Positions 1 to 53,846 of a stretch of DNA of 64,000 nucleotides are shown piece by piece. The translations under genes were made by a program, and so were the position numbers. The notes below the pieces were generated by a model that made no database searches, had not been told where the DNA came from, and saw only the letters and a list, made by a program, of their open reading frames with translations. The DNA is from an uncultured Acidobacteriaceae bacterium. Lineage in GTDB: Bacteria; Acidobacteriota; Terriglobia; Terriglobales; Acidobacteriaceae. The stretch covers positions 282,845 through 346,844 of the forward strand of contig CAWKMZ010000007.1 of the NCBI GenBank assembly GCA_963850865.1. Reading direction: 5' to 3'. How positions within the stretch are numbered: the first letter of the stretch is position 1; every line of letters starts with the position of its first letter.

Positions 1-246
1 TGCGGATCATCCAGCTTGGCGTATGGCACAGGTGCGACTTTGGCAGACCAATCGGGCGAAAGAAACCTCCCCGTTGAACTTGAGTAGTAGCGCGCAGAGA
101 AGTAATCGTTCCCGCTCTCTGCATCCCGTTCTTTGCCGGTAGAACAGGATAGCGGAAAACAAGGTCTGAGAGCACAAGTTGTGCAGAGCGTCGTAGATGT
201 GGATCACAACCTGACCTCCATCGTAGGTGAAGCCCGTGCCGGACAT
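1..246 (-). pseudogene. Orphan Rhs core-end module, partial (continues beyond the window start), apparent 1-nt frameshift near 140
   Basis: The minus frame from 134 down to 1 reads GKERDAESGNDYFSARYYSSSTGRFLSPDWSAKVAPVPYAKLDDP. This is 37/45 identical to the core end of the rhs gene at 860-2542. The ATG at 246 (MSGTGFTYDGGQVVIHIYDAL...AILF) is in another frame. It joins the core end only if one nt (extra t at about 140) is removed. Confidence 0.6.
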
Positions 247-251
247 CCTGG

Positions 252-836
252 TCAGTGCCTGTGGGGACCTGCATCACCCGCAGACTTCTTCTTAGCGCGT
301 GCTGCGCAAATTGAATGAGTTGGACCGAACGGCTTCGATACGAACGCGATTGCTACGGCCTCATCTTCATAAAATATCACTCCAATGCCTTTATCTCGAT
401 ATTCCAAGTGTTTGATCGGTCCGTTAGGCGATTCGTAAATCGGTGCTGCCCCTCCCTCGCCGAGGCAATCATCCGTATCATATTGAACAGCGATATAGCC
501 CGAGCCGAACAGTTGGACGATCTCGCTTTTCGACAGCCGTTTCTTCAGAGAAAGCGTCATTCCGTCGAGAACTCCCTTTTGCACATAGACCGTGAGCACT
601 CCAGGTGCTGGATCGGCCACAATATAGGTCATCGTTGGAAGTCCTGTGTCCTGCTCCTTCCCAATCGTTTTGGGCTTACCAAGTACCCTGAGCACATCGT
701 CCTTTGTGCTGAGTCCAACCGTCAGGTCGTTATACATGGCTGGCGACCATGACCTATCCGCAGGTTTCTGAGGGTTGGCCTGCTGAACTACGATGGTCGC
801 CAACATGATTATTTGTAGCGCCTTCTTAATCTGCAT
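252..836 (-). CDS. Exported hypothetical protein; candidate immunity protein for the upstream Rhs M23 toxin
   Basis: 194-aa ORF starting 23 nt downstream of the rhs stop on the same strand. The N-terminus MQIKKALQIIMLATIVVQQANP looks like a Sec signal peptide. No family recognised. The immunity role is inferred from position only. Confidence 0.7.
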   Translation of the reverse strand: MQIKKALQIIMLATIVVQQANPQKPADRSWSPAMYNDLTVGLSTKDDVLRVLGKPKTIGKEQDTGLPTMTYIVADPAPGVLTVYVQKGVLDGMTLSLKKRLSKSEIVQLFGSGYIAVQYDTDDCLGEGGAAPIYESPNGPIKHLEYRDKGIGVIFYEDEAVAIAFVSKPFGPTHSICAARAKKKSAGDAGPHRH

Positions 837-859
837 AGTTCTCCTGAGCCTTCCGTTGG

Positions 860-2542
860 CTACTGGGTGGCACTATTGAGCCAAGTGGCTGGATCGACGC
901 GTTGGCCGTTGACCTGAACTTCAAAATGAACGTGAGACTCGCTCGCTGGCTGTCCCGCAGCGTTTCCAGTTTGTCCCGAAGTTCCGATCACATCGCCGCG
1001 TTGTACGGTGTCTCCCACAGAAACACCATTCTCGGAATTATGGGAATACACCGTTACAGTGCCACTACCATCGTCGACCTTGACGGTGTTTCCATAGCCG
1101 GTTGTTTGCGAGCCGCTCACGCCGCTAAACGTCACTGTTCCCCCTGTAGCTGCGTGAATATCGGAGCCAACCGGGGCGCTAATATCTTCTCCCTGGTGGG
1201 TCCGACTGCATCCCGTACCTCTGCAAGCTCCAAAATTACCGGCTCCGCCTACTCCCGGACGTTCATTGCCTGGCTGTCCTTTGGGATCACGAGAAAACAA
1301 GGTCTGTCCCGTTACTGGGTTCACTCCCTTCATCGGAGGACCGCCTGGTACAGGTGCCTGCGCTAGCTGGGGACGAGGCGTATCTACCCAGCCTTTGCCC
1401 TGAAGGGTATTCAGGACCTTATCCCAGAAGTCATGGCCGTCTGGGTCTGTTTTACCCAGAGGATTGTTCAGGACGTATGAGTAGAGGTTCAGCGACTGTG
1501 GATTGTCCAACTTCGCGTACGGTACTGGTTCGGCTTTGGCCGACCAATCCGGGCTCATAAACCGGCCCATGCTGGAGGCATAGTACCTTGCCCCGAAGTA
1601 GTCGTTTCCTGATTCGGTGTCGCGTTCTTTGCCGGTGAAGTGGTGCGGGTCGGGGATGTTGCCGGCGCAGGCGAGGCCGTCGCCGAAGGGCAGGCCAGTG
1701 CAGGTTCCCTGGAGCACGCCGGCCGAGTCAGTTGTGGCGCGCAAGGTGCCGAGCCAGTCAGTGAGCCGGAACGAGGGCAGCGGCTTGGTGGGATTGTCGG
1801 GCGAGGGGTCATAGGCAGCGAAGAGCGCGCCGGCGGCATAGACGTAGGTGCGCTGCCAGTTCATGCCGCCGTTGGAGTCCTGGGCGACTTCGCTCACCTG
1901 CTCGCCGCCGGGGCCGAGAATGTAGTCGGTTTCGTTGTTGCTCGTCATGAAGCCGTTCTGCGTCATGTCGCAGGAGAGAGTGGGCGTGCCGTTAACCATG
2001 ACCAGTTGAATCGAACTCTTGGCGACGCGGTTGCCTTCGGCGTCGTAGAGGTAGCCCATTGTGCCGCTTGGGCCGGAAACCGCGCAGATGCGCCCTTCGC
2101 CGTCGTAGGCATAGTGGTTGCCGCTGCTGGGATCGACGGTCACATCGCCCGAGGCGTCGTAGCTGGGCGTATAGTTGGCTGTTCCAACCCGTATCGACTG
2201 GATCTGGTTGCTGATTGCGGGAGTGACAGCCGTGCTGGGCGGGATGGGCGCGGTGACTTGCGCACCCTGGGCGAGTCCGAACGATTCGCTCGTGCGGTTT
2301 CCGAAGGAGTCGTAGCTCCAGGCTGCCTGCATGCCCTGGTACGGGCCACTGCTCGCCTGCGCCGCGACCAGCCGGTTTAGCGTGTCATACCCGCTGCCGC
2401 CGGCCGTCGTCATGCTCCACGTCCCCATCACGGAATCATAGTAGCTCAAGGGATTGCTGGGCAGGGTCGGCCCTTGACAGGAAAAAGAGGGGGCGAGGGA
2501 ATGTTCCGTCGGTCCCTGGGGTTGTGGTTCGTGGTCTCCCAC
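860..2542 (-). CDS. RHS repeat-associated core protein (N-terminally truncated) with C-terminal M23 (LytM-type) metallopeptidase domain
   Basis: YD-repeat-like segments (YAYDGEGR, YLYDAEGNR) are present. The core-end motif is FTGKERDTESGNDYFGARYYASSMGRFMSPD...NPLGKTDPDGH. It is followed by a 190-aa tail with M23 motifs HQGED (HxxxD) and HVHFEV (HxH). The GTG start at 2542 is immediately preceded by an in-frame TGA. Confidence 0.9.
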   Translation of the reverse strand: MGDHEPQPQGPTEHSLAPSFSCQGPTLPSNPLSYYDSVMGTWSMTTAGGSGYDTLNRLVAAQASSGPYQGMQAAWSYDSFGNRTSESFGLAQGAQVTAPIPPSTAVTPAISNQIQSIRVGTANYTPSYDASGDVTVDPSSGNHYAYDGEGRICAVSGPSGTMGYLYDAEGNRVAKSSIQLVMVNGTPTLSCDMTQNGFMTSNNETDYILGPGGEQVSEVAQDSNGGMNWQRTYVYAAGALFAAYDPSPDNPTKPLPSFRLTDWLGTLRATTDSAGVLQGTCTGLPFGDGLACAGNIPDPHHFTGKERDTESGNDYFGARYYASSMGRFMSPDWSAKAEPVPYAKLDNPQSLNLYSYVLNNPLGKTDPDGHDFWDKVLNTLQGKGWVDTPRPQLAQAPVPGGPPMKGVNPVTGQTLFSRDPKGQPGNERPGVGGAGNFGACRGTGCSRTHQGEDISAPVGSDIHAATGGTVTFSGVSGSQTTGYGNTVKVDDGSGTVTVYSHNSENGVSVGDTVQRGDVIGTSGQTGNAAGQPASESHVHFEVQVNGQRVDPATWLNSATQ

Positions 2543-2545
2543 TCA

Positions 2546-2640
2546 TCCACGATAAAACCGTGGATGAATGGGGCACAGAGGTTTTTGGTTATTTGATGAC
2601 CGGGCCACCTGCCCACCTGCCAACGGCAGAAAAGTCAGGA
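2546..2640 (+). repeat. Short spacer resembling a dispersed acidobacterial intergenic repeat
   Basis: The plus strand reads HDKTVDEWGTEVFGYLMTGPPA. From memory this resembles short dispersed repeats in Terriglobia genomes. There is only one copy in this window, so repeat status cannot be shown here. Confidence 0.25.
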
Positions 2641-2645
2641 CCCCC

Positions 2646-3430
2646 TCAACTCAGGATCCGCGCAATGATGGGGCCCCAGAAAGAAAGATCGGGTTTGCGG
2701 AACGGCTGATTGTGGCCGATAGCCAGGCACGATCACGACTTCAGCGGGTACGGGGCACAGGCGGCGAGTCGCGCGCCATTTGAACGGGGAAGAGGCGATC
2801 GTTTTCGCAGTGGACGACCAGTACAGAGACACGTGCAATCGCGGAGGGACTCTTGCGCCGGCCATAAGGGCGGAACGAGAGGGCTGAATCTGGCAGGGAG
2901 CCCGATGGCGCAAACGGCATCGCGAAAAGACGTGAACGCGGCGCAGAGAAAAAGGTGATCGGGCGCGGCCGTATTCACGATTGCGGCGGCGGGACCGCTC
3001 CCAAGAGAAAAACCAAGGAGTGGCGGTTGGCGGCGGGTGCGTGAGACGCTGAAGCTGGAAGGCGGAGATGCCGTCGTGATCGAATTGCGCGCCAGCTGGG
3101 GCGTCCGGTGCTGCGGCCATAGCCCGAGTAATCGAAAAGAGCGACGAAACGCCGTATGCGGCGAAGAGGCTGCTGCACGGGAAACCAATGCTGAACGGTT
3201 TCGCCGATGCCGTGGCAGAGAAGCATTGAGGCTCGTGCAGGGTTTGCGGCGGGCTGACGAACACCGCATCGAGAGGATTTTGCCGCTGGAGATTTAGGGC
3301 GTCGCGGCAAGTAGATTTGGCGCCTCCAGCGGCGACGCTGGGGTGACCGCCCGAGAGAGCCGGTCATAGAGCAAATGAATGCGACTGGCGCATGCAAGGT
3401 AAACGGAGCGAGGCCGGTGAAAGACGACAT
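2646..3430 (-). pseudogene. Alpha/beta-hydrolase pseudogene with multiple frameshifts
   Basis: Hydrolase motifs are scattered over three minus frames. These are LLCHGIGE...FDYSGYGRSTGRPS (frame of ORF 2975-3430), the nucleophile elbow LLGFSLGSGPAAA...FTSFRDA (frame of ORF 2733-3269), and VVIVPG followed after a shift by GHNQPFRKPDLSFWGPIIARILS-stop (stop at 2646-2648). The 5' boundary is uncertain. Confidence 0.6.
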
Positions 3431-3485
3431 CCAGGGGTGCTCCGCAAACTGATTGCGCGGAGGCCAGAGTAAGCGATCTGCAGCG

Positions 3486-4922
3486 CTATTGCGTCGGCGC
3501 GATGAGGTACTGCTCGAGCTTGCCGTCGGGGTAGGTGTAGGTTGTGAGCCGGAGACGGCGGCCGGGATAAACGATGTCGAATGCGCGGAAGGTCATGCCG
3601 CCGCGAAGTTCTTCGCTGGTTTGGCGCAGGCTGAGCGGCTCGCCGAGCGGCGCAAGACTGGACTGGAAGTCGGCGATGGCCTGGGGCGTGAAGTAGTCGT
3701 TGAGGTTCGGCGCGAGGAGTGATCGGTCGATGCGCCCTTGCTGCAGGCCGCGGTAGATGTCGAGGGCTTGCTGCTCAGGAGCGCTGAGTGGATAGCCGGC
3801 GATGAGAGGCGCGGCGAGATTGGCAATGGTGCTGGCCGCGCCGACGGCATCCTGGTTGGTGAGGACGGCTACGGCCACGCCGTCATCGATGAGTACTTGG
3901 TTGTCGGCGACGAATCCTGAGACCTCGCCCGAGTGCTCGATGGAGCGATGGCCATCGCGATCGCGCACCTCGACGCCGAGGCCGTATTCGGTGCCCTTCC
4001 CGTTTTTCAGCTTGACCTCAGTGAACATTTGTTTGTAGCTCTCGGACGAAAGAATTGACTGGGCGGCAATGCTTTGGTCCCAAAGAGCGAGGTCGTGCGC
4101 GGTCATGGCGAGCTCGCCGGCGGCGAACATCCAGCCTGCACCCTCTTTGGGCGCGAGCCGCAGTGGACCGAGCGCGTGGCGATAGTACGCCGTGGCGTCG
4201 GGAGGCATGAGCTGGCTCGCGTCGGAGTTCCAGACAGAAGTCATACCGAGCGGGCGAAAGATGTGCTCGGTGAGGAAGTCGAAGAGAGGCTGGCCGGAGA
4301 CGATCTCGACGATGCGGCCGGCGATGACGAAGTTGGTGTTCGAATATTGCCACTGGGTGCCGGGATCGAAGTCGAGCGGCTTTTTGGCCCAGGTGTCGAG
4401 GATCTGCTGGGCGGTTTCGGGCTGGAGCATGGGAGTCATGACGTAATCTTCGGGCCAGTAATCCTGATAGCCGGAGGTGTGGGAGAGAATCTGGCGGATG
4501 GTGATTTCGTTGCCGCGCGTGAGGCCGGGAATGTATTTGCCGACGGTGTCGTCCAAGGAGAGCTTGCCTTGTTCCTGAAGCAGGAGGATTGCGGCGGCCG
4601 TGAATTGCTTGGAGATGGAGCCGATGGAGTAGCGCATGGCGGGCGTGGCAGGGACGGCAGGAGCGGAGGCTGAGGCCAGGTGGGCGAAACCGTAGGCGTG
4701 GGTGTAGACGAGCTTGCCGTGCTGGACGACGGCGATGGAGGCCGAAGGCACGCCGGTGGCTCCGAGCACCTGCGCGGCGATGCGGTCGATGCGCGATTGG
4801 AGGTCAGGTGAGAGGGCGTCGACGGTTTGGTTGGGGGCTTGAGCGGGCGCGTGAGGAGCCAGGAAACACAGCGCGAGAATCGACAGGATTAAAGAGCGCG
4901 GAGATTTTATTCGGCAGTGCAT
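3486..4922 (-). CDS. Serine hydrolase, beta-lactamase/transpeptidase-like (class C family), secreted
   Basis: Has the SxxK motif (SISKQF) and YxN motif (YSNTNF). The start is placed at the internal ATG 4922, giving the signal peptide MHCRIKSPRSLILSILALCFLAPHAPAQA. The ORF is open to 5099. Confidence 0.9.
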   Translation of the reverse strand: MHCRIKSPRSLILSILALCFLAPHAPAQAPNQTVDALSPDLQSRIDRIAAQVLGATGVPSASIAVVQHGKLVYTHAYGFAHLASASAPAVPATPAMRYSIGSISKQFTAAAILLLQEQGKLSLDDTVGKYIPGLTRGNEITIRQILSHTSGYQDYWPEDYVMTPMLQPETAQQILDTWAKKPLDFDPGTQWQYSNTNFVIAGRIVEIVSGQPLFDFLTEHIFRPLGMTSVWNSDASQLMPPDATAYYRHALGPLRLAPKEGAGWMFAAGELAMTAHDLALWDQSIAAQSILSSESYKQMFTEVKLKNGKGTEYGLGVEVRDRDGHRSIEHSGEVSGFVADNQVLIDDGVAVAVLTNQDAVGAASTIANLAAPLIAGYPLSAPEQQALDIYRGLQQGRIDRSLLAPNLNDYFTPQAIADFQSSLAPLGEPLSLRQTSEELRGGMTFRAFDIVYPGRRLRLTTYTYPDGKLEQYLIAPTQ

Positions 4923-5101
4923 AGGCGCCGTTCCCTCTCGTTCAGGATAGACGCATGGGCTCAATGGGGCGATACGATCCGCGCGCATACGATAGCCTGT
5001 CGAGAGGCAAGTGATGCGCGAGTCAAAATGCGGATCAACGGGCCCGGATGACGGGGCGCAGATGAATTCGCCAACGACGAGACTGGGATGGCTGGGCAAA
5101 A

Positions 5102-5719
5102 ATGCAAAAGCTGATTGAGGGACATAAGAAGTTTCTTGCCGAGGTGTTCCCGGCGAAGAAGAGCCACTTTCATTTGCTGGCGGAGGGACAGTCGCCGGAG
5201 TGGCTGTTCATTACCTGCGCGGATTCGCGCGTGCTGCCGGACCTGATTCTGGGGACGGAGCCGGGGGACCTGTTTATCTCGCGCAGCATCGGCAACGTGG
5301 TGCCGGTGACGAGCCACGACGTGGACGGCGTGACGGCCACGATCGAGTACGCGGTGGAAGTGCTGAAGGTGCGGCACATCATCGTGTGCGGGCACTCGGA
5401 CTGCGGAGCGCTGAAGGCCGCGCTCGACCGAAAGAGCCTGGAGAACCTGCCCAAGGCGCGGCGTTGGCTGGAGCATGTGGAAGCGGCCTTCGCTTACAGG
5501 CAGCCGCTGAATCCTGCCGATGGCGAGAGCGCCGAACTGGCGTCGTTGATCCGCGGCAACGTGGTGGCACAGCTCAAGAACCTGCAGGCACAGATGCCGG
5601 TGCGTAACGCGATGGCCGAGGGCCGGCTGACGGTGCACGGGTGGTACTACGACATTTTGACGGGGCGGATTGAGGAGTACGACGAAGGGGAGAAGAAGTT
5701 TGTGGGGTTGGCGGGGTAG
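5102..5719 (+). CDS. can: Beta-class carbonic anhydrase
   Basis: Zinc-ligand motifs CADSRV and HSDCGA are present. The length is typical at 205 aa. Confidence 0.93.
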   Translation: MQKLIEGHKKFLAEVFPAKKSHFHLLAEGQSPEWLFITCADSRVLPDLILGTEPGDLFISRSIGNVVPVTSHDVDGVTATIEYAVEVLKVRHIIVCGHSDCGALKAALDRKSLENLPKARRWLEHVEAAFAYRQPLNPADGESAELASLIRGNVVAQLKNLQAQMPVRNAMAEGRLTVHGWYYDILTGRIEEYDEGEKKFVGLAG

Positions 5720-5805
5720 GTCGGAAAGCAGCGGCGGCCTTATTGGACATTTGACCCCATTTTGAATAGACTAGATGATTAACTAGTTGGTTGATGGAGG
5801 GAGCT

Positions 5806-6066
5806 ATGCCGGCGACAGATACCCGATACACCGAAATTGGCGCATTCGACGCCAAGACGAGGCTCTCCGAGATCTTGCGCAAAGTGAAACGGGGAGAACG
5901 ATTCACGATCACGGTACGGGGAAGAGCGGTAGCCAACCTGGTGCCGAGTGAACAGCGCGACCAGCGCCGCGTGAAAGAAGCGGTCGAGGCATTGCGAAAT
6001 TTTCCCCGGATCACCGGCGTTTCGGGCGACGAAGTTCTTGCGTGGATTCGGGAAGGCCGAAAGTAA
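5806..6066 (+). CDS. Type II antitoxin, Phd/YefM-like
   Basis: The N-terminus IGAFDAKTRLSEILRKVKRGERFTITVRGRAVANLVP is typical of Phd/YefM. A GGAGGG RBS lies 5 nt upstream of ATG 5806. The gene ends 9 nt before the PIN gene. Confidence 0.8.
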   Translation: MPATDTRYTEIGAFDAKTRLSEILRKVKRGERFTITVRGRAVANLVPSEQRDQRRVKEAVEALRNFPRITGVSGDEVLAWIREGRK

Positions 6067-6075
6067 GGTCAGCCT

Positions 6076-6504
6076 ATGGGATTGGTTCTCGACGCTTCAT
6101 CTGTGCTCGCATGGTTCGTTCAGCGAATGGATCGGCGCGAAGCGGCCATGGCTGAAGAGATCCTGGCGAGCGTCGAGCGGGACGAAGCCGTGGTGCCGGC
6201 TCTATGGTTCACTGAGGTGGTGAACGGGCTTCTCGTCGCGGAACGCCTCCGCCGCAACGGTCCTTCAAAGGCTCCACAATTCCTGGCTGAGCTTGCTGCA
6301 CTGCCCATTGAGGAAGATCGCGTCAGGCCATCCGTTACACAGGGAGAGGTTTTGGCGCTTTCACGCAGGCATGGACTTTCGGCCTATGACGCCGTCTACA
6401 TGGAACTCTCGTTGCGAACGGGCAGAGCGCTTGCGACTTTCGACAAGCAGCTTGCCAAGGCGTTGCGCAAGGCGGGTGGGCGGGTGTTTGGAGATGCGGC
6501 GTAA
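6076..6504 (+). CDS. vapC: PIN-domain ribonuclease toxin, VapC family
   Basis: Begins MGLVLDASSVLAWF with the conserved acidic D. It also has SAYDAVYMELS. 142 aa, directly downstream of the antitoxin. Confidence 0.85.
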   Translation: MGLVLDASSVLAWFVQRMDRREAAMAEEILASVERDEAVVPALWFTEVVNGLLVAERLRRNGPSKAPQFLAELAALPIEEDRVRPSVTQGEVLALSRRHGLSAYDAVYMELSLRTGRALATFDKQLAKALRKAGGRVFGDAA

Positions 6505-6780
6505 GGGTGCCAAGGATCGCTTCCCATTTGATTTTTGAGCCCTCTTCTTTACTTCGACTCCAAAGGTGTTTCTTTTCGGCTTCGGGTGATCCATCTTGAT
6601 TGCCGGCAGATGCAGGCAGGGTCCGGCGGCTGCCATTGCGGTTCTTCTTGGCCGCCGGCAAGCCGGGGAAATCGTGAAAACCCAACTCCTCTGCCCGACC
6701 GTTGAGCGCCGGAACCTGCGAGTGCAGATATGGGCGTTCACAGCATATGAGGCCTCTGAATAGCATGCGGTTGCTTTCGC

Positions 6781-8361
6781 CTAGTGCGCGCCGGGCGGGG
6801 CTTCAGTGTGGGCGGGCGGCTTGGTGAAGAGCCATGCGCAGGCAGCGCAGATGAGGGCGAGGACGGCGGTCCAGCGGAAGACATCGACATAGGCAAGCTG
6901 CGCGGCCTGCTGCTGCATGAGGCCGTAGATGAGGCCGTAGGAGCCGGGGCGCGCGTTTGCCGGGCCGATGCGATGGCCAAGATATGTGGCGATGATGGCG
7001 GACTTCTGCTGAAGCACGGCAGAGCTGGGCGAGAGGTTCGCGCCCAATTCGGTCTGATGCAGGGCCGCGCGGCGAATGATCGCTGTGGTGGCCATGGCGA
7101 TGCCGATTGAACCGCCTATGTTGCGCAGCATGTTGAAGAGGCCGGTGGCGTTGCCCATCTCATTCCTGGAGATGGTGCGGGTGGATAAAGTGGCCAGCGG
7201 CACGAAGACGAAGCTGAGCGCGAAGCCGGTAAGCATGATGGGAAAGAGCAGCGTGTAAGGGCCGATGTCGAGGTTGACCTCGCCAAAGATGAAGGCGCAC
7301 ACGGCGAAGCCGAGGAATCCGGCACAGAGCAGCTTGCGGTTGTCGATGCGGGAACCGAGGATGCCGATGATGGGCGAGCCGATGAAGGAGCCGACGCCGC
7401 GGGGAAAGACGACGAGGCCCGCGGTGAACGCGGTGTAGCCGAGAATCTCCTGATAGTAGAGCGGGAGGATGGCAATGGTGATGTAAATGCACATGCCGAG
7501 CATGGCGATCATCAGGCAGCCGGTTCGGAAGTTGGGATTTTTGAGGATGTGCAGATCGACAAGGCCCTTGGGATGGGTCCAGGAGTGCCAGATCCACAGC
7601 AAGAGCGCAATGACGAGCGCCGCTACCGCCCAGCGCACCCAGATGGCGCCGAACCAATCGTCCTCCTGACCTTTGTCGAGGACGATCTGCAGGCAGCCGG
7701 TCCAGACAATCAACAAGCCGAAGCCGATGTTGTCAAAGGCGCCCACCTTGGCGTTCTTGATGTAAGGGGGATCGTGGACGAAGCGGCTGATCATGATGAC
7801 GGCCAGAATGCCGACGGGAATGTTGATGTAGAAGGCGTAGCGCCAGCTGAATGTGTCAGTGAGCCAGCCGCCGAGAGTGGGGCCGAGGACTGGGGCACAA
7901 ACGATTCCGAGTCCGTATGCGGCCATGGCTTTGGAGCGGTCCCGGAGGGAAAAGCTCTCGAGCAGAATGGATTGCGAGAGCGGCTGCAATGCGCCGCCGC
8001 CCGCCCCTTGCAGGATGCGGGCCAGGAGGATGACGGCCAGCGATGGGGCAGCACCGCAAAAGAAACTTGCGATCGTGAAGAGAATGACGCAGGTGAGCAG
8101 GAAGCGCTTGCGGCCGAAGCGGCGCGCAAACCAATTGGAAGCGGGCAGAATGACCGCGTTGGCGACAAGGTAGCTGGTGAGCACCCAGGTGGCTTCGGAG
8201 TTGGAGGCTGAGAGCGAGCCGGCGATGTAGGGCAGGGCCACCGAGGCGATGGCGGTGTCAAGCACTTCCATGAAGGTGGGAAGCATGACCGACACTGTGA
8301 CCAGCCACGGGTTAACGCCCTGGGTGAGCGGGTAGCGAGCTTGAGCGGCAGCCGTGGTCAT
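6781..8361 (-). CDS. MFS transporter, DHA2 (EmrB/QacA) drug-efflux family
   Basis: 526 aa with about 14 hydrophobic segments. Has typical DHA2 N-terminal motifs (LDTAIASVALPYIAGSL, GRKRFLL). Confidence 0.9.
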   Translation of the reverse strand: MTTAAAQARYPLTQGVNPWLVTVSVMLPTFMEVLDTAIASVALPYIAGSLSASNSEATWVLTSYLVANAVILPASNWFARRFGRKRFLLTCVILFTIASFFCGAAPSLAVILLARILQGAGGGALQPLSQSILLESFSLRDRSKAMAAYGLGIVCAPVLGPTLGGWLTDTFSWRYAFYINIPVGILAVIMISRFVHDPPYIKNAKVGAFDNIGFGLLIVWTGCLQIVLDKGQEDDWFGAIWVRWAVAALVIALLLWIWHSWTHPKGLVDLHILKNPNFRTGCLMIAMLGMCIYITIAILPLYYQEILGYTAFTAGLVVFPRGVGSFIGSPIIGILGSRIDNRKLLCAGFLGFAVCAFIFGEVNLDIGPYTLLFPIMLTGFALSFVFVPLATLSTRTISRNEMGNATGLFNMLRNIGGSIGIAMATTAIIRRAALHQTELGANLSPSSAVLQQKSAIIATYLGHRIGPANARPGSYGLIYGLMQQQAAQLAYVDVFRWTAVLALICAACAWLFTKPPAHTEAPPGAH

Positions 8362-8557
8362 GCAGGGAGACTGCTCTGAGGGTAAACGATGGGCTCATGA
8401 GCCGCTTGTGACACGGACCACGGCGAGGATGGCGGCGATCACGTTAGCTTTGGAATGCGGGCTGTGTGATCTGGCTCAGCTTGACACAATCGGCCCGGCC
8501 CTTGATGCTGGTCAGTTCCGCTATTTTAGGCGACGGCTCGAGGAGGGCTCCCCGGTG

Positions 8558-9548
8558 ATGCAGGTTCGCGTCTTTTATCACGACAAGTGCTTTGACGGAG
8601 CTTGTTCGGCCTCGCTGTTCACGCGCTTCCATCAAGAGTGCATTACTCGGGACGCGAGCTACGAGTATCACGGGCTGGTTCACCGCGCCGGCGCGCTGTT
8701 CGACGAGAGCGAATTTACCGGCGACGAGAACGCGATTGTCGACTTCAAGTATTCTCCTTCACCGCGCATTACATGGTGGTTCGATCACCACCAATCGGCA
8801 TTCCTGACTCCCGCGGACCACGAGAATTTTCTGGCGTGCCAGCGCGATCCGAGTTGCGCGGCGCGGAAGTTCTTCGATCCGAACTACACCTCGTGCACGA
8901 GCTTTCTGGCGCATATCGCCAAGACGAAGTATGGATTCGACACAGCGCCCGTGGCGGAGCTGATTCACTGGGCCGACATTGTGGACGGCGCAAAGTATGA
9001 CAGCCCCGAAGCGGCAGTAGAGATGGCCGCGCCGGCGATGAAGCTGACGTTGATCATCGAGGCCACCGAGGATCCAGAGTTCATTCCGAGGCTGATTCCG
9101 CTGTTGACGGAAATGCCACTGGCGGAGATTCTGAAACAGCCGTTTGTGGCGCCGTTGTTGCCGCCACTTGATGAAGCGCCATGAAGAGGCGCTGGAACTG
9201 ATTCGCAGCCGGGCGGAATACCGCGATGGAACCATCTTCTTCGACATCACCGACCACCCGACGGAGGGGTTCAACAAATTCATCCCGTACTACCTTTATC
9301 CGCAAGCGATTTATTCGATCGGGCTATCGAAGTCGAGCTTCAGGACGAAGGTGGCCGTGGGATCGAATCCGTGGACGAAGATGGACCCCGCAAAGATGGT
9401 GAACCTGGCGCAGATTTGCGAGCGGTACGGCGGGGGTGGGCACGCGCGCGTGGGGGCGATCAGTTTTCCGCCGGACAAGGAAGCGGAGGCTCGGGCGGCG
9501 GCGCAGGAGATTGTGGCGGAGCTGCGACTGCAGGGAACAAGGGAATAA
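8558..9548 (+). pseudogene. DHH/DHHA1-family phosphoesterase split by a 1-nt frameshift near 9168
   Basis: The N-terminal part (8558-9184) reads MQVRVFYHDKCFDGACSA...DHH. The C-terminal part (ORF 9144-9548, other frame) carries the DHHA1-like GGGGHARVGAISF. The two read through as ...PLLPPL/MKRHEEAL if one g is removed. An AGGAGGG RBS lies before ATG 8558. Confidence 0.6.
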
Positions 9549-9562
9549 GGGAACAATGGGAC
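9531..9562 (+). repeat. 8-nt tandem repeat, 4 units (cagggaac aagggaat aagggaac aatgggac)
   Basis: Read directly from the sequence. It overlaps the stop codon (9546-9548) of the DHH gene. The unit is the same as in the array at 16909-16980. Confidence 0.85.
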
Positions 9563-9620
9563 GAAACAACAGCGGACATAGCGCATAGGCATTCGGTCGG
9601 GCGCTCTCCAACGAACCACA

Positions 9621-10021
9621 ATGAGGCAATACCTTTTTGCGTACGGGACGCTGCAGCCGGGGCTTGCGCCGACGAAGATTGCGCGCGTGGCGGCGAAGTT
9701 GCGGCCAGTGGGCGAAGGATTTATGCGCGGTGTGCTCTACGATCTCGGTGGCTATCCGGGCGCGGTGGCCGATCCGAGCGCAATGGGCAAAATTGCAGGG
9801 ACCGTGATGGAGCTGCCGGAAGAGGAAGGCGTGCTCGAGCGGCTCGATCGGTACGAGGGATTCGATCCGCAGGCGCCGGAGACGAGCGAGTATATCCGCG
9901 AGAAGCAATTGTGGAGTTAAAGACGGGCGGCACGGTGGAGTGCTGGTTCTACGGTACAACCGGAAGGCGCGGGATTCTCAGCGAGTCCAGAGCGGGGCGT
10001 GGGGGAGATAAACCGCGATGA
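9621..10021 (+). pseudogene. Gamma-glutamylcyclotransferase (GGACT/AIG2-like), C-terminus shifted by a 1-nt deletion near 9897
   Basis: MRQYLFAYGTLQPG...LDRYEG...SEYIRE stops at 9920. The expected last strands, AIVELKTGGTVECWFY, continue in the -1 frame. That frame ends at 10021 in an ATGA overlap with the next gene. Confidence 0.55.
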
Positions 10022-10428
10022 TAGGTCTCACAACTCCGCTGATGCTTCTGACCCTCGCTCTTTTGCTCTTGGGCTTTGTTACGATTGGGCTCTCGTTCTC
10101 CGGGGCGACAATCGTGGCGAGGCGGCGAGGGAATTCTGAGTTTACGGCAGAGGAATCACACGCGAAGATCGACATGTCCACAGCTCTCCTCGCGGTTTCG
10201 GCGCTGCTGCCGCTTTTGGCGGGTGTCCTCTCCCGCTTTGGCGCGTCCACTGCAGGGCTCATGCTTTTGCCGATTGGACCCCTGCTTCTATGGCCTATCA
10301 GTGCAGTACTCGCTATCCGGGGAAAAGGCGCCGGCCGTCGGGTTCTGCTTGTGGGGCACGGACTAATCGCCCTATTGGTGGCGTTATTAATTCTGATCCT
10401 AGTTTTTGCTTATATTCGTCGAAGCTAA
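10018..10428 (+). CDS. Hypothetical integral membrane protein
   Basis: 136 aa with four hydrophobic segments. No family recognised. Confidence 0.55.
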   Translation: MIGLTTPLMLLTLALLLLGFVTIGLSFSGATIVARRRGNSEFTAEESHAKIDMSTALLAVSALLPLLAGVLSRFGASTAGLMLLPIGPLLLWPISAVLAIRGKGAGRRVLLVGHGLIALLVALLILILVFAYIRRS

Positions 10429-48824: not shown

Positions 48825-51800
48825 TCAGTCGACTGTCAGAGTCAGATTCACCGATTGCGAGATGCCCATGGAGGTGACGCTGACCGGAATTGTGTATGTC
48901 CCCGGCGCCGTATTGGAGCCGCCGCCGCTGCCGCTTGAACCACCGCCCGTGCCTCCACCGGAACTGGTGCAGCTGGAGACGCCGCCCACAAAAAAAGCAG
49001 CCAGCGGGACGAGCAAGAATAGATTGCGGCGCCTGCGAACCGCAAAAGGAAGCACGAACAACCCGCAGGCCAGCGGCAGCGCGAACCCGAAGCCGAGCCC
49101 GTTGAATCCGGGCTTCGCGGTCTTCGGTCTGGCGATGCCGGATTTTTCGAGACCAGCCGTCGGTGCGTGGCCCGTGGAGATTTCGACCGCGACGTCGCCC
49201 AGGACGCCGGCGCTGAGCGTCTCGTTGGCGGGACTAAAGAGGCAAAGCGCGTTTGTGGGCAGCGTGCCGCAGGAAAAAGCAAAGGTGGCGCCGGAGCCGA
49301 CGGGCGAAATGACCAGTGTGTAGGTGGCCTGCTGCCCGCTTGCGACGGTCTGGCTCGTTGAGCCGGTAATCGCCACAGTGAAATCGAATCCGGTTCCTGA
49401 AAGCGCCACGGTGGCTGGCGTGGAAACGGCGGAAGAAGTGACGGTGAGCGATCCCAAAGCGGAGCCGCCTGCGCCGGGCTGAAAGACAACCGACGCGGAA
49501 CAGTTATCGCCCGCTGCAAGGGCGCCCGTGCACGAATTTTGCGAGATGCTGAACGGCGCAGGAGCGGCGAGCGCGATAGAAGCGATGGCGTAATTGGAGG
49601 AATTTGTGATGGTCACTGGCTGAGCGGTGCTGGACTGACCCGCTGCAACTACGGGAAATGCGATCTGAGAGGGATTTGTGGCCAGGCCGGCTGCGAGCTG
49701 GCCCGAACCATTGAGCGGCACCGAAGCTGGAGCAACTCCCAAAGTGGAAGAAGAGACAGCAAGCGTGGCCGCGATGACGCCCGTCGCGCTCGGCGTGAAG
49801 ACGATCTGCAAGGTGCAACTACTTCCGTTATTGAGCAACGCTCCGCAAGTGGTCCCGGCGATGGAGTAGCTGGACGCCGCGGCGCCGGTGATGGAAAAAC
49901 CGACATTGGCCAAAGACGAGCCGCCGATGTTGCCAATGGTGAGCGTTTGCGGGGCACTGGGTACGCCAGGCTGCTGGTTGGTGAAGGTCAGGCTGGAAGG
50001 GCTGACGCTGAAAACGGCCGGCGAAAGCCCTGAGCCGCTCAAGGCCACGGTCTGCGTGCGTAGCGCGTCGGTAATCGTCAGCGAGCCGGTGACCGCGCCT
50101 ACCTGGGAGGGAGCAAAGATGACGCTGATGGTGCAGACCGCGCCCGCCGCCAGTTGCGCTCCGCATGTGCCCGACACCTGGAATTGGGGGCTGGCCGAGA
50201 TGGAAATCGAGGTCAGCGGCAAGCCGCCGGAGTTTGTCAGCGTCACATTCTCCGCGGCGGAGAGCTGGCCCTCCGAGGTTGGCGGAAACGAAAGCGATAT
50301 GGGATTGAGGACGTCGGCGGGAGGAGCGATTCCCGTTCCGGTCAGTTCCACGGTTTGCGTGCCCGCACCATCCGTAAAGGTCAGCAGTCCGGACGCGGGG
50401 CCATCCTGCGTCGGCGCAAATTCTACTTCCAACTGGCAGACGGAGTTTGCGGTCAGGCTGGATGTGCCACACGAGTTGGCAGTGAGGATGAACGGCGGGG
50501 TGATGGAGATGCTGCTCAAGAGAATCGCCGTCGCACTGCTGTTCGCCGCGGAGATCTGGAGCGGCGCCGACACGGTTCCAACTTCCACCTGGCCGAAGGG
50601 TACGGACGCGGGGATGAGGCTTACGACGCCTGCGGGCGAGCCGGTTCCGGTCAGGTCGATCACAAGCTGCCCACCGTAGACGTTGGCGTAGATGGTCATT
50701 TCCCCGCTCAGCGGGCCCGTGGCTTGCGGCGTAAATGTCACCTGGAGGTCGCAGGTCGCGCCCACCGCGACGGACGCATTCACACAGTTGTCAGTTTCGC
50801 TGAAATCTACACTCATCGAAATGGAGGAGACCGTGAGCGCGAGATTGCCGGTGTTGTTGAGCGCAATGGTCAGCGGACTACTGGAGGTGTCAAAGACCTG
50901 ACTGGGAAAAGCGAGAGTCGAGGGGCTGGCGGCGGCGACAGTAAGGCCCGTCCCTGCGCTCCATAGCGGGGCTTGCCAGAGTCCGCGCCCGTAGGTGGCT
51001 GCCACCAGAACTTGCGCGGAAGAAGAACTGGGAGCGGCGTTTAGTGCAACGACCGGAGAGCTGGGTAAGCCGGAGCCAAACACTGACCAGCAGTTGGAAA
51101 GGGATTGCGCACAGCTCGCAACTTCGGTTGTGAAGTACACTCCCTGGTCAGTGGCGACATATACCGTGTTCGCATTCTGGGGGTCGACGGCAAGGCTGTT
51201 GGCAGGCGCGATTGGCAAATTCGCTGAAATGCTGTTCCAGGTGGCTCCTCCATTCGTCGAGCGGTACACCACCTGGAGTCTTTCGTAAGGATTATCGGTG
51301 CCTTCCACCGTTACGTAGACGGTGTTGCCTGTGGGGTCGTGCGTGTCGATGACAATGCTGGAAATGTCAAAGTTTTCGAAGTTCAACGGATGGGGGTTGT
51401 TGAGAACGGGATTCAGCGTGAGATCGTGCCACACGGGCGCAACGCGGGAGGTCAGATCGAGGGTCGCGCTCAGAATGTGGCCCGGCAAGTTGCCGCCATT
51501 GCTGGCTGCGCCATACATACCGGCGTAGATGACCTCGCCGCTGGGAGGGAGCGGCAGGGCAGCGATCGACCGTATAAGGCCATCGCCATTGCATGGAACG
51601 CCGGTAGCTCCGCTCGAGAGGATCGGGCTAATGGCGTTGCTTGCGCTCCAACTGCCGCTATTGGCCGGCCCGCGCCACACGCGACAAGTTGCGATGAGCA
51701 ATTGAGAGTCGTCCAGCGGGTCGACCAGAAACGGCGCTGCTGTCGGCATCGCATTGCCGTCGCCGCCGACGTCCGCGTCCGCGATCACCGGGCTCGTGCC

Positions 51801-53846
51801 AAATGAGCTGGGCGTGCAGGGGGCCGATTGCGAGCAACGATAGATGGCCACTCCAGGCTGATTGTTTACATACCAATTCGTGTCATTCGCAAGGTCGATG
51901 GCGACGGGGCCGCCGTAACCGGAGAGAATCTGCGGCCAGTCCGAGGTCTGCGAGGAACTCTTCACGCCCGCGGTTCCGTTGACGCCCAGGCCAGCCATCA
52001 GCTTGTATGGCGAGTCTGTAACGGGCGACAGGCTGACGGTCTCGGCAAGCGATCCCAAGCTTCCGTTGAGGTTCTGGTAGTGCGTGGCATCCGTTGCCGC
52101 GCAGGGCGATCCTGATTCGCCAATTGCGTCCGTCGAGCGCCAGAGCCCGCTGTCGTTGCCGAGAAAAACCTCCAACGGGTTGGCCGCGTTCCAAGCGAGC
52201 GAGTGCTGGTATTCAGCCACCTGTGCGCTCATGCAGGTGGTGGAGTTGGTGGTGTTGCGCCAAACGCAACCCATGGCGAGGCTGCACTTCCACAGATCAT
52301 TGGCGCCGGCCAGCACAAATGTGTCCTGCTGATTCGGAACCGCAGCAAGGGCGAGGTTATAGTCGCCGTCGAGAATGGTGGCAGCACCCTCGAGAGTGCT
52401 GGCTTCAAGAGGTGCAGTATTCCACTGCGTGGCAAAGGAGATGGTCGGATTGCTGCAAGTCCCCGCGACGATCGCGCATCGATCCTGCCATAACCCCTGA
52501 TCCTGATTGTTCAGGTCCACGGTCCACGCAAACGTGTCCCCGGTTTGCGGATTGACCGCGAGCGCGCCGCGATAGATGGGACAGGCGATGGATCCAGCCT
52601 GTCCGGCATTGGCTGGACACATTTGGGTGGTGAGGCCGGTGCCTGGTTGCGCGGTCATGCGCGTCCAGGTAACGCCGTCTGGCGACTGATAGTAACCGTG
52701 ATAGCGCATCGCAGCCACAAACAACTGACGCACGGGGTTCCACACCACTGCGGTAGCAGCGATGCCCAGCGCGGGAGGACTCGTTGCTGGCCCCTGGAGG
52801 ATTTCTCCGCTGCCGTCGGTGATCGTGCTCAGGTGCCAGGTCGCGCCGCTATCCGCGGAGTAATACAAGCCCTGGTATGTGGTGAGCGGCCAATCGGCAT
52901 CGACCAAAGTGCCTTCATAGGCTTCGGAAACTGCCGCTACAACAAGTTGCGGATTCACAGTACTCCAGGCGAAACCGGCAAAGCCCTCGCCGATGAATCT
53001 GGCATCCGTGAGGCTCATGCCCTCTTCCTGATCGACGGTCTCCTGGATCAGACTCCACGTGTTGCCGCCGTCTGTGGAGCGTAGAATGCCGGCGCCGTAG
53101 TACGAATCGAGGACGTCGTTAGGGTCGCCGGTGCCGGCCAGGATGACGCCGGTTCCACCCGGCTGCACAGTGAGAGCGCCGATGCTGATGGACGCATCGG
53201 AGGCTCCGGCGAGCACAGCCAGCGAGTCAGTGAGCGGAGTGAAGACGATGGACGAGGGCGTGGACGCCGCGGCGTTGTTGGCCACCCAAACGCCGCCGCC
53301 GGTGGTGCCTGCGTAAAGGCGGTTGCCGGTCACGTCAGAAGGATCGAGAGCCAGCGCGGAGATGCGTCCGGTGACGAGGCCAAAGTTTGGCGTCTGGACC
53401 GCCGCGGGTCCGAGGGGCTGCCAGGTACTGACCGACGCGGTACTGGCAACGCTCTGGATACGCGGCACGGCGCCGCTCGGCGATGCGCCGAAAGTTGGAG
53501 GGCCCATATGGCGGACGGCGCCCGCCCGTGGCGCCAATCGATGACCCGGCGTCCACCCGCGCTCCCGAAGAAAACGCTGAGCTTCAAGAACGCGAGGCGG
53601 GACGCGAACAGACCGGGTTGCTTGGTGGCCCGACGGTTTGGCTGGCACGATGGGAGCTGGCGATTGGGCTGCGGTTGGGACGGCCGGCAGATGCGCCAGA
53701 AGGCATGCGGCGAGCACAGCGCGGGCCCACGCGCCACGGATCGAGTGTTGGCGATAGGTACGTCGCTCGGGCCGCCGGACTCGATTCCCTGCACTCCCCT
53801 TTCGGGCGGTGCGCTTCGATTTCGGATCGAACATTGGATTCGTCAC
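48825..53846 (-). CDS. Giant secreted protein: tandem BNR/Asp-box beta-propellers (sortilin/GH74-like), about 7-8 Ig-like repeats, and a C-terminal membrane hairpin with terminal beta domain
   Basis: 1673-aa uninterrupted ORF. Has Asp-boxes STDGGNTWS, SADSGATWH, SPDGVTWT and STNGGATWN. Repeated units of about 95 aa follow the pattern L.F....G..S....VTL.N.G...L.I.S....F....C...LA.G..C...V.F.P. Has an N-terminal signal-like segment. GTG start. Confidence 0.9.
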   Translation of the reverse strand: MTNPMFDPKSKRTARKGSAGNRVRRPERRTYRQHSIRGAWARAVLAACLLAHLPAVPTAAQSPAPIVPAKPSGHQATRSVRVPPRVLEAQRFLRERGWTPGHRLAPRAGAVRHMGPPTFGASPSGAVPRIQSVASTASVSTWQPLGPAAVQTPNFGLVTGRISALALDPSDVTGNRLYAGTTGGGVWVANNAAASTPSSIVFTPLTDSLAVLAGASDASISIGALTVQPGGTGVILAGTGDPNDVLDSYYGAGILRSTDGGNTWSLIQETVDQEEGMSLTDARFIGEGFAGFAWSTVNPQLVVAAVSEAYEGTLVDADWPLTTYQGLYYSADSGATWHLSTITDGSGEILQGPATSPPALGIAATAVVWNPVRQLFVAAMRYHGYYQSPDGVTWTRMTAQPGTGLTTQMCPANAGQAGSIACPIYRGALAVNPQTGDTFAWTVDLNNQDQGLWQDRCAIVAGTCSNPTISFATQWNTAPLEASTLEGAATILDGDYNLALAAVPNQQDTFVLAGANDLWKCSLAMGCVWRNTTNSTTCMSAQVAEYQHSLAWNAANPLEVFLGNDSGLWRSTDAIGESGSPCAATDATHYQNLNGSLGSLAETVSLSPVTDSPYKLMAGLGVNGTAGVKSSSQTSDWPQILSGYGGPVAIDLANDTNWYVNNQPGVAIYRCSQSAPCTPSSFGTSPVIADADVGGDGNAMPTAAPFLVDPLDDSQLLIATCRVWRGPANSGSWSASNAISPILSSGATGVPCNGDGLIRSIAALPLPPSGEVIYAGMYGAASNGGNLPGHILSATLDLTSRVAPVWHDLTLNPVLNNPHPLNFENFDISSIVIDTHDPTGNTVYVTVEGTDNPYERLQVVYRSTNGGATWNSISANLPIAPANSLAVDPQNANTVYVATDQGVYFTTEVASCAQSLSNCWSVFGSGLPSSPVVALNAAPSSSSAQVLVAATYGRGLWQAPLWSAGTGLTVAAASPSTLAFPSQVFDTSSSPLTIALNNTGNLALTVSSISMSVDFSETDNCVNASVAVGATCDLQVTFTPQATGPLSGEMTIYANVYGGQLVIDLTGTGSPAGVVSLIPASVPFGQVEVGTVSAPLQISAANSSATAILLSSISITPPFILTANSCGTSSLTANSVCQLEVEFAPTQDGPASGLLTFTDGAGTQTVELTGTGIAPPADVLNPISLSFPPTSEGQLSAAENVTLTNSGGLPLTSISISASPQFQVSGTCGAQLAAGAVCTISVIFAPSQVGAVTGSLTITDALRTQTVALSGSGLSPAVFSVSPSSLTFTNQQPGVPSAPQTLTIGNIGGSSLANVGFSITGAAASSYSIAGTTCGALLNNGSSCTLQIVFTPSATGVIAATLAVSSSTLGVAPASVPLNGSGQLAAGLATNPSQIAFPVVAAGQSSTAQPVTITNSSNYAIASIALAAPAPFSISQNSCTGALAAGDNCSASVVFQPGAGGSALGSLTVTSSAVSTPATVALSGTGFDFTVAITGSTSQTVASGQQATYTLVISPVGSGATFAFSCGTLPTNALCLFSPANETLSAGVLGDVAVEISTGHAPTAGLEKSGIARPKTAKPGFNGLGFGFALPLACGLFVLPFAVRRRRNLFLLVPLAAFFVGGVSSCTSSGGGTGGGSSGSGGGSNTAPGTYTIPVSVTSMGISQSVNLTLTVD

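Follow-up and report, generated by a model that had tools for sequence, protein, structure and literature searches.

What becomes of a polymorphic toxin gene once it has lost its 5′ part, and what is then left for selection to keep? The question is raised by the left end of a 64,000-nt stretch of DNA (the window, by which we mean the entire stretch analyzed) from an uncultured Acidobacteriaceae bacterium (GenBank assembly GCA_963850865.1, contig CAWKMZ010000007.1, positions 282,845 to 346,844), where a rhs gene, a candidate immunity gene and an orphan rhs core end follow one another. A first-pass annotation, made from the letters alone, had described three co-oriented minus-strand elements forming a degenerate Rhs locus, and all three lie where it had placed them. 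We consider it probable that the region is a displaced, 5′-truncated remnant of a Rhs (YD-repeat) polymorphic toxin locus from a Terracidiphilus-like acidobacterium, and this remnant is most likely dead as a toxin and alive as an immunity locus. Its domain content, truncation and junction were directly observed, as were the conserved linkage of toxin and immunity genes, a frameshift in the orphan and the variability of the site between strains. The locus is a well-supported and fairly ordinary example of a known locus type.

The rhs gene forms a maximal open reading frame (ORF) of 560 codons on the minus strand (860..2542), starting with GTG and preceded immediately by a TGA. The first-pass annotation had read it as the last YD repeats, a core end and a 190-aa tip, and had proposed hidden Markov model (HMM) searches for an RHS core and an M23 peptidase as a check; both matched above cutoff and its reading was borne out. 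In Pfam, RHS_repeat (PF05593; E 1.2e-8, 35.6 bits, cutoff 22) matches three stretches of the ORF, and in NCBIfam YD_repeat_2x (TIGR01643; 27.7 bits, cutoff 15.8) is accompanied by Rhs_assc_core at residues 285-370 (TIGR03696; 65.5 bits, cutoff 32.5). Together the YD-repeat region and core cover 1433..2457 and terminate in PLGKTDPDGH (residues 361-370, nt 1462-1433). The tip that follows (residues 371-560, nt 863..1432) consists of a linker and, starting some 78 residues past the DPxGH motif, a Peptidase_M23 domain (PF01551; residues 448-551, nt 890..1201, E 3.7e-26, 91.6 bits, cutoff 28.7). The zinc and catalytic motifs of this domain are in place (HQGED, of the form HxxxD, at 449-453; YSHNS at 499-503; HVH at 537-539), and a PDB sequence search with the tip matched 40 M23 chains, the best at E 2.7e-14. 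Judged by these motifs, the tip is a catalytically intact M23 peptidase. GC content steps down along the array: the core has 0.63, the tip 0.56 and the 194-aa immunity candidate 0.51, in a window with a mean of 0.60.

That the gene is truncated had been an inference of the first-pass annotation and is now established by comparison with a full-length homolog. This homolog was reached by an exact look-up of the 194-aa protein, which retrieved ENA contig_8662 (L001). Positions 1..2457 of the window align to L001 10836..8380 with 99.76% identity and six differences, and the L001 rhs gene encodes 1254 residues. Homology with the window stops at residue 722/723, so that the window copy is without the N-terminal 722 residues. 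These comprise a signal-peptide-like N-terminus (…VNRWLFVALLLSWATLTGEAYGQ), approximately seven repeats of ~90 aa and a short non-repeat segment, after which the protein continues into a short YD region, the core and the identical type of M23 tip. In L001 the gene is the second of a pair (2307-9977), preceded by a gene for a 1245-aa YD-repeat lipoprotein that has no core end. Pfam finds no PAAR, VgrG or other delivery domain in either of the two L001 proteins and no match to the ~90-aa repeat domain, and a PDB sequence search with the N-terminal 722 residues came back empty. Because an N-terminal signal peptide is combined with the lack of any delivery-domain match, the intact toxin is probably exported by the Sec pathway.

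The truncation point coincides with a structured repeat. Homology to the full-length gene is limited to 860..2457, and codons 1-28 of the window ORF (2542..2458) derive from a REP-like (repetitive extragenic palindrome) element of ~165 bp on the plus strand (2449-2613). The element has inverted ends (TGGGCAGGGTCGGCCC / GGGCCACCTGCCCA) and a central hairpin (CCCACTCATCCACG-ATAAAAC-CGTGGATGAATGGGG), and its RNA fold has a z-score of -3.25. A 9-bp microhomology (AGGGATTGC, plus strand, 2449..2457) is common to rhs and the repeat (alignment A1). Rfam has no family for the repeat, nor any match across the window, and there are no further copies within the 64 kb. The few copies that we found all lie at one hot spot in related contigs: L004 (4770-4937), L005 (5906-6159 and 7457-7546), L006 (608-771 and 3168-3332) and the more distant relative L055 (4230-4348 and 6355-6576). 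In L055 the two copies bracket a Y1/IS200-like transposase (Y1_Tnp, PF01797, E 4e-12). Repeats flanking a Y1 transposase are the arrangement of REP/RAYT (REP-associated tyrosine transposase) systems. An identity as integron attC sites was considered and set aside, with no integrase in this region of the window and cargo in non-uniform orientation. The window has no dedicated recombinase, and a scan for promoters and terminators returned counts at chance level.

Can what is left still be delivered? A Pfam search of the window rhs ORF found no signal peptide, PAAR or other N-terminal delivery domain, in agreement with the first-pass annotation, which had seen no PAAR, VgrG or type VI secretion system (T6SS) gene in the window; none of the ten large ORFs that we scanned is a T6SS gene. 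The possible in-frame starts (2542, 2449, 2431, 2428 and 2413) are without a well-spaced Shine-Dalgarno sequence, the sole GGAG lying 1 nt 5′ of ATG 2413, and ~340 residues of YD region are left. Without a signal for export or a convincing ribosome-binding site, and with too small a YD shell, the remnant has most likely ceased to be a deliverable toxin; having lost the export parts, it would be unable to use the Sec route proposed for its intact relative. Neither a complete YD shell nor an N-terminal delivery/plug region is present, homology beginning at residue 723 of the L001 protein, and the gene is therefore a remnant and not a functional member of the Rhs family.

The gene that follows has fared differently. 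As the first-pass annotation had it, a 194-aa exported ORF (252..836, minus strand) starts 23 nt past the rhs stop; it has a Shine-Dalgarno sequence (AGGAGAA) and an N-terminal signal-like segment, MQIKK-ALQIIMLATIVV-QQA. No Pfam domain occurs in any of its 46 homologous clusters, 45 of which come from metagenomes only and one of which is represented at NCBI. Across the family alignment the signal peptide is conserved and cysteines C124 and C177 are invariant, which fits a periplasmic protein. The AlphaFold model (pLDDT 85.6) predicts two tandem alpha/beta units of a BamE/BLIP-like kind. Its best Foldseek matches are all weak (E at least 1.6e-3) and include DUF4309/YjgB, a putative BLIP-like protein, YfeY and OsmE; a PDB sequence search with the protein was empty. 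The predicted fold is compatible with a role as a protein inhibitor, and we take it no further than that.

Close members of the family (56-90% identity) always lie 3′ of Rhs core ends with an M23 tip. The closest, P0001 (90% identity; 126 blocks of the collection contain it), lies directly 3′ of a 320-aa ORF, again with a gap of 23 nt (L057-L061), and this ORF joins an unrelated leader to a Rhs core end and M23 tip that are 84% identical to those of the window. In these arrays (~7015-10154) a second orphan, with a GHELEH tip, and an exported protein come next, and integrase and primase genes adjoin, with a TrwC relaxase gene in L057 and L059. P0020 (56% identity) lies 6 nt past a 332-aa orphan core end with an M23 tip, 65% identical to ours over the aligned core end and tip, in a cassette on another integrase/primase element (L018-L020). 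The orphan ORFs of both groups have unrelated leaders that run into TGKERD… core ends. The M23 tip and a homolog of the 194-aa protein thus occur together in three architectures, namely the full-length rhs of L001, the orphans of L018-L020 and those of L057-L061. Their co-occurrence and co-divergence across these architectures are the expected signature of a cognate pair, and the comparison supports the 194-aa protein as the predicted cognate immunity to the M23 tip. As a separate observation, the cassettes of L057-L061 and L018-L020 indicate a traffic of rhs cassettes on mobile elements.

The third element is an orphan core end that leaves the window on its left (1..246, minus strand). The first-pass annotation had seen here a second copy of the core end, 6 nt after the 194-aa gene. 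The core end is real, scoring 39.5 bits with TIGR03696 (cutoff 32.5) over a frame-corrected reading of 81 residues; the spacing is in fact 5 nt, from the TGA of the 194-aa gene to an ATG at 246, and the frame is broken. The ATG opens a short YD-like stretch in a frame that closes at 7..9, and the FTGKERD...SPDWSAK...PYAKLDDP reading lies in another frame; alignment to the main core end places one extra nucleotide near nt 141 (ttc-T-acc). Since L001, L002 and L003, three independent assemblies, all have this frameshift, it is no local sequencing error. A programmed frameshift was considered and rejected, given that L004 has the same cassette in frame and that the shift lies where the core ends diverge.

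Extending the sequence leftward revealed, after the DPDGH motif, a variable tip and an exported protein, in keeping with the tip and immunity gene that the first-pass annotation had expected there. A Logan contig (L002), 100% identical to window positions 1-1609, reaches ~1 kb further left, and L001, 99.8% identical over its overlap, covers the same ground. Both continue the orphan as a 227-aa ORF in which RFDPDGH is followed by a ~195-aa tip with HEGTHGVDE, and next comes an ORF of 169/189 aa with a signal-peptide-like N-terminus, a second exported immunity candidate. Neither this tip nor its immunity candidate has a Pfam or NCBIfam match beyond the Rhs core, and a PDB search with the tip was empty. 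The order of toxin, immunity gene and orphan module proposed by the first-pass annotation is thereby supported by HMM matches and related contigs alike. The orphan and main core ends share ~70% nucleotide identity and nowhere match over more than 14 nt in a row; with its frame broken as well, the orphan falls short of what activation through recombination with the main core would require. Recombinational activation from within the locus looks inefficient.

How did such a remnant come to lie here, away from any full-length rhs gene? The sister contigs share a backbone (beta-lactamase, carbonic anhydrase, PhD-PIN and other genes) and differ in the cargo at this site. L006, from a separate sample (ERZ25039454), has the identical junction of rhs and repeat, down to the same 28 element-derived leading codons; its core leads into an unrelated tip, the gene downstream codes for a different protein (197 aa, no signal peptide), and the whole insert lies between two directly repeated copies of the element. 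In L005, L007 and L008 the cargo is a TetR gene and others. L004 holds two further Rhs core-end cassettes. In the first of these (6998-8365, minus strand) the alpha/beta-hydrolase gene next to the site is fused in frame, after ~213 codons, to a core end (…PGKERDTESGNDYF…DSDGH) and another tip, so that a housekeeping gene is joined to an rhs tip; the product has 455 aa, with Rhs_assc_core at residues 207-274. A 185-aa exported protein comes next, and then, in frame, a version of the HExxH orphan found left of the window, with its immunity gene (93% nucleotide identity to L001). The tips and immunity genes of L006 and L004 have no Pfam or NCBIfam match outside the Rhs core. Two JGI contigs from relatives ~90% identical (L054 and L056) present the empty site with a single copy of the repeat. 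From these empty-site alleles, together with the alleles carrying other cargo (L004, L005, L007 and L008), it follows that a variable hot spot has received the block by insertion. The rhs remnant is one allele of a strain-variable, REP-associated site that has repeatedly held cassettes of rhs tips and immunity genes.

We also note that the tip in L006 seems to be split over two frames, a 93-aa ORF (1472-1753) overlapping the end of the 521-aa rhs ORF (1696-3261, minus strand). Neither half has a family match, and the split is either a frameshift or an assembly error.

One could go further and propose that the hot spot is a dedicated, REP/RAYT-associated capture locus and an island of acquired defense, gathering cassettes 3′ of the alpha/beta-hydrolase gene from the main rhs locus and from conjugative and integrative elements, and that the 194-aa protein founds a new family of periplasmic BamE/BLIP-like inhibitors of M23 toxins. 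We offer this joint proposal, made for Terracidiphilus-like Acidobacteria, tentatively and think it less likely than not.

Several observations weigh against a remnant whose surviving function is immunity, and they have to be set beside its rivals. The block of M23 tip, immunity gene and orphan is joined to the truncated junction only in this window. Within the shared core, single-nucleotide polymorphisms (SNPs) are of the L001 type up to nt 1839 and of the L006 type from nt 2089, with a private change at nt 2078, so that a crossover can be placed at 1840..2088; this switch fits a natural exchange of tips and a chimeric assembly alike. Immediately upstream of the remnant and co-oriented with it, the alpha/beta-hydrolase gene (2640..3430, minus strand) has several broken frames. 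Against the sister contigs, the segment 2640-3500 contains 22 gap openings to 32 mismatches, with almost no gaps from 3.5 to 12 kb, and it switches between L005-type and L006-type alleles. Rather than a heavily decayed pseudogene, we more likely see here an artifact of mixed-strain consensus, and the abnormal indel density of the segment suggests that mixed-strain consensus lies close to our locus. Suppose, then, that the assembly is chimeric, that the real truncated rhs bears another tip, as L006 does, and that the M23/immunity/orphan block comes from a full-length locus elsewhere, such as that of L001. The join would run through the ~900 bp of shared rhs core, exactly where the SNPs change type and where two short-read contigs, L002 and L003, both end (nt ~1609-1618), next to a hydrolase segment with 22 gaps in 860 bp and its mosaic of alleles. 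Exact look-ups of the window rhs product from its 517-, 522- and 560-aa starts found it on no contig of a protein-indexed collection, and the 30-nt junction sequence is absent from the GTDB species-representative genomes and the JGI metagenome contigs. A related-locus search of genome contigs retrieved only generic M23 domains (33-50% identity) and no close rhs relative. On the other hand, homologous exchange of tips within the core is the normal course of Rhs evolution and leaves the same SNP pattern, and the private SNP at nt 2078 falls inside the crossover region. The hot spot holds differing rhs cassettes by strain (L004 and L006), and since the HExxH orphan and its immunity gene also occur there in L004, the left part of the array fits the site. 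We give a chimera a minor though real share of the probability. It would alter which tip the truncated gene carries, and would leave standing both the existence of the truncated rhs (L006) and that of the M23/immunity/orphan array (L001-L003).

The remnant ORF is moreover uninterrupted over its 560 codons and could thus still be expressed. From this one may argue for a functional short Rhs effector of 517-560 aa, started internally and delivered by an unlinked system (T6SS, for example) or released by lysis. Its core and M23 motifs are intact, co-oriented genes upstream would allow read-through transcription, and L006 keeps the same 5′ end with a different tip. But that 5′ end is an accident of joining with a REP element, which supplies 28 of the codons and is preceded directly by a TGA; the ORF has neither a delivery domain nor a well-spaced ribosome-binding site, and no T6SS gene was met among the large ORFs scanned. 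To its short stretch of YD repeats the intact relative adds 722 residues and an adjacent 1245-aa YD-repeat partner. We regard a working short effector as very unlikely. The same can be said with greater force of the proposal that the M23 domain is a housekeeping cell-wall hydrolase fused to YD repeats by chance, beside an unrelated periplasmic protein of 194 aa. M23 domains are indeed mostly housekeeping, and the NCBIfam matches here are to MepM, DipM, EnvC and ShyA, all far below their cutoffs. Four distant members of the 194-aa family (P0022, P0036, P0044 and P0045; 45-53% identity) also stand alone in housekeeping contexts, so the family is not exclusively toxin-linked, a further point against our interpretation. 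They may be orphan immunity genes, or else represent an ancestral periplasmic family behind the immunity protein. Yet the M23 domain begins a short way after a canonical DPxGH cleavage motif, it occupies the very segment that unrelated sequence replaces in L006, and with its 194-aa homolog it moves as an orphan cassette on mobile elements, which makes a chance fusion scarcely credible. The distant members are found in L013-L015, L062 and L063, within neighborhoods of conserved housekeeping genes.

We therefore return to the truncated, immunity-bearing remnant and outline how it may work. In the intact form the 1254-aa protein, with its signal peptide, repeats, YD shell, core and M23 tip, would be exported via Sec. 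The core aspartyl autoprotease would then free the tip, as the conserved core motif and established Rhs/TcC biology suggest, and the released tip, if it behaves as M23 enzymes do, would cut peptidoglycan cross-links in the periplasm of a competitor. In the producer, the 194-aa protein would be exported to the periplasm and neutralize the tip. In the window copy the first 722 codons, which encode the signal peptide and repeats and the beginning of the YD region, were replaced by the REP-like element at the 9-bp microhomology, and an M23 domain left in the cytoplasm would do no harm. Selection would probably act on the immunity gene, intact and with its own Shine-Dalgarno sequence, shielding the cell against kin that carry the full-length toxin, such as the 99.8% identical version in a related metagenome. 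The next cassette, with its orphan core end, HExxH tip and second exported immunity candidate, would be silent because of the frameshift.

The assignment to a Terracidiphilus-like member of the Acidobacteriaceae comes from proteins: RseP and Dxr of the window and SRP54 of a sister contig belong to clusters at 90% identity or above, and the named members of the RseP and SRP54 clusters carry the annotation 'Terracidiphilus sp.' MAG. Contrary to the first-pass annotation, the Rhs locus is not the only conflict-type locus in the window. At ~5791-6500 on the plus strand (~5.8-6.5 kb), directly after the carbonic anhydrase gene, lies a pair consisting of a PhD/YefM antitoxin and a PIN toxin, identified through Pfam assignments of identical neighbors in L004-L011. 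The ten large ORFs scanned (LptD, SurA, SecDF, COX1, an amidase, a photolyase, an FtsX/MacB-type permease, a pyridine-nucleotide oxidoreductase, an esterase and an Ig-like-repeat protein) are housekeeping genes or unrelated to conflict. A 1673-aa ORF on the minus strand (48825-53846) with many Ig-like domains of the ASH/Cep192/HYDIN type is probably a large surface or secreted repeat protein.

The locus leaves current concepts unchanged. It documents Rhs-type interbacterial weaponry in Terracidiphilus-like Acidobacteriaceae, here from metagenome contigs alone, whose intact form appears to be exported by Sec rather than linked to a T6SS and to carry an M23 peptidoglycan endopeptidase as its tip. 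It adds a candidate immunity family of about 46 clusters without a Pfam domain, which may include proteinaceous M23 inhibitors, and the pairing of this family with an M23 tip is a modestly new entry. It is also a clear natural case in which toxin genes decay and immunity genes persist, and in which cassettes move between chromosome, hot spot and mobile elements.

How does it compare with systems already described? In Tc toxins, TcB (the shell) and TcC (the end of the shell, core and toxin) together form a cocoon. The L001 pair, in which a 1245-aa YD lipoprotein precedes the 1254-aa protein with core end and toxin, recalls this in gene order and domain split only; there is no TcA, both L001 proteins have signal peptides of their own, and the pair lies outside the window. 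The acquired interbacterial defense (AID) systems of Bacteroidales are islands of interbacterial defense genes obtained from elsewhere. Like such islands of orphan immunity and defense, our locus has an intact immunity gene without a deliverable toxin, at a strain-variable site and with cassettes on integrase and relaxase elements (L018 and L057-L061). Unlike them, it keeps toxin fragments beside its immunity genes and has no dedicated recombinase, with REP-like repeats in place and a Y1 transposase only in a distant relative.

The nearest relatives are the rhs loci and orphan rhs-CT arrays, of the kind known from 'C-terminal displacement', in E. coli, Salmonella, Serratia and Dickeya, for example. 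They share with our locus the YD repeats, the PxxxxDPxGH core end, a variable tip whose GC is lower and an immunity gene directly 3′ of it; an orphan core end comes next, with another tip and an immunity gene of its own, and alleles differ by the swapping of tips within the core. The polymorphic-toxin framework, including this layout of orphan modules, was laid out by Zhang et al. (2012; PMC3482391), and orphan Rhs immunity has been described in Serratia (PMC10539506). The window copy departs from these arrays in lacking the N-terminal 722 residues, in being sited away from any full-length rhs and in the frameshift of its orphan, and its intact relative departs from them in combining a Sec-type signal peptide with novel ~90-aa repeats and no PAAR- or VgrG-linked domains. 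The nature of the tip, an M23 peptidase, is a further difference; in the part of its text available to us, the 2012 catalogue (PMC3482391) does not use the terms M23 or LytM. A putative T6SS effector with an M23 domain in Enterobacter was called unexplored in a 2023 study (PMC10763514), and resembles our system in the HxxxD/HxH zinc site and in the small gene downstream that was proposed to confer immunity. In our locus, by contrast, the M23 domain forms the predicted cleavable tip of a Rhs protein and is paired with a previously unannotated family of ~190-aa exported proteins.

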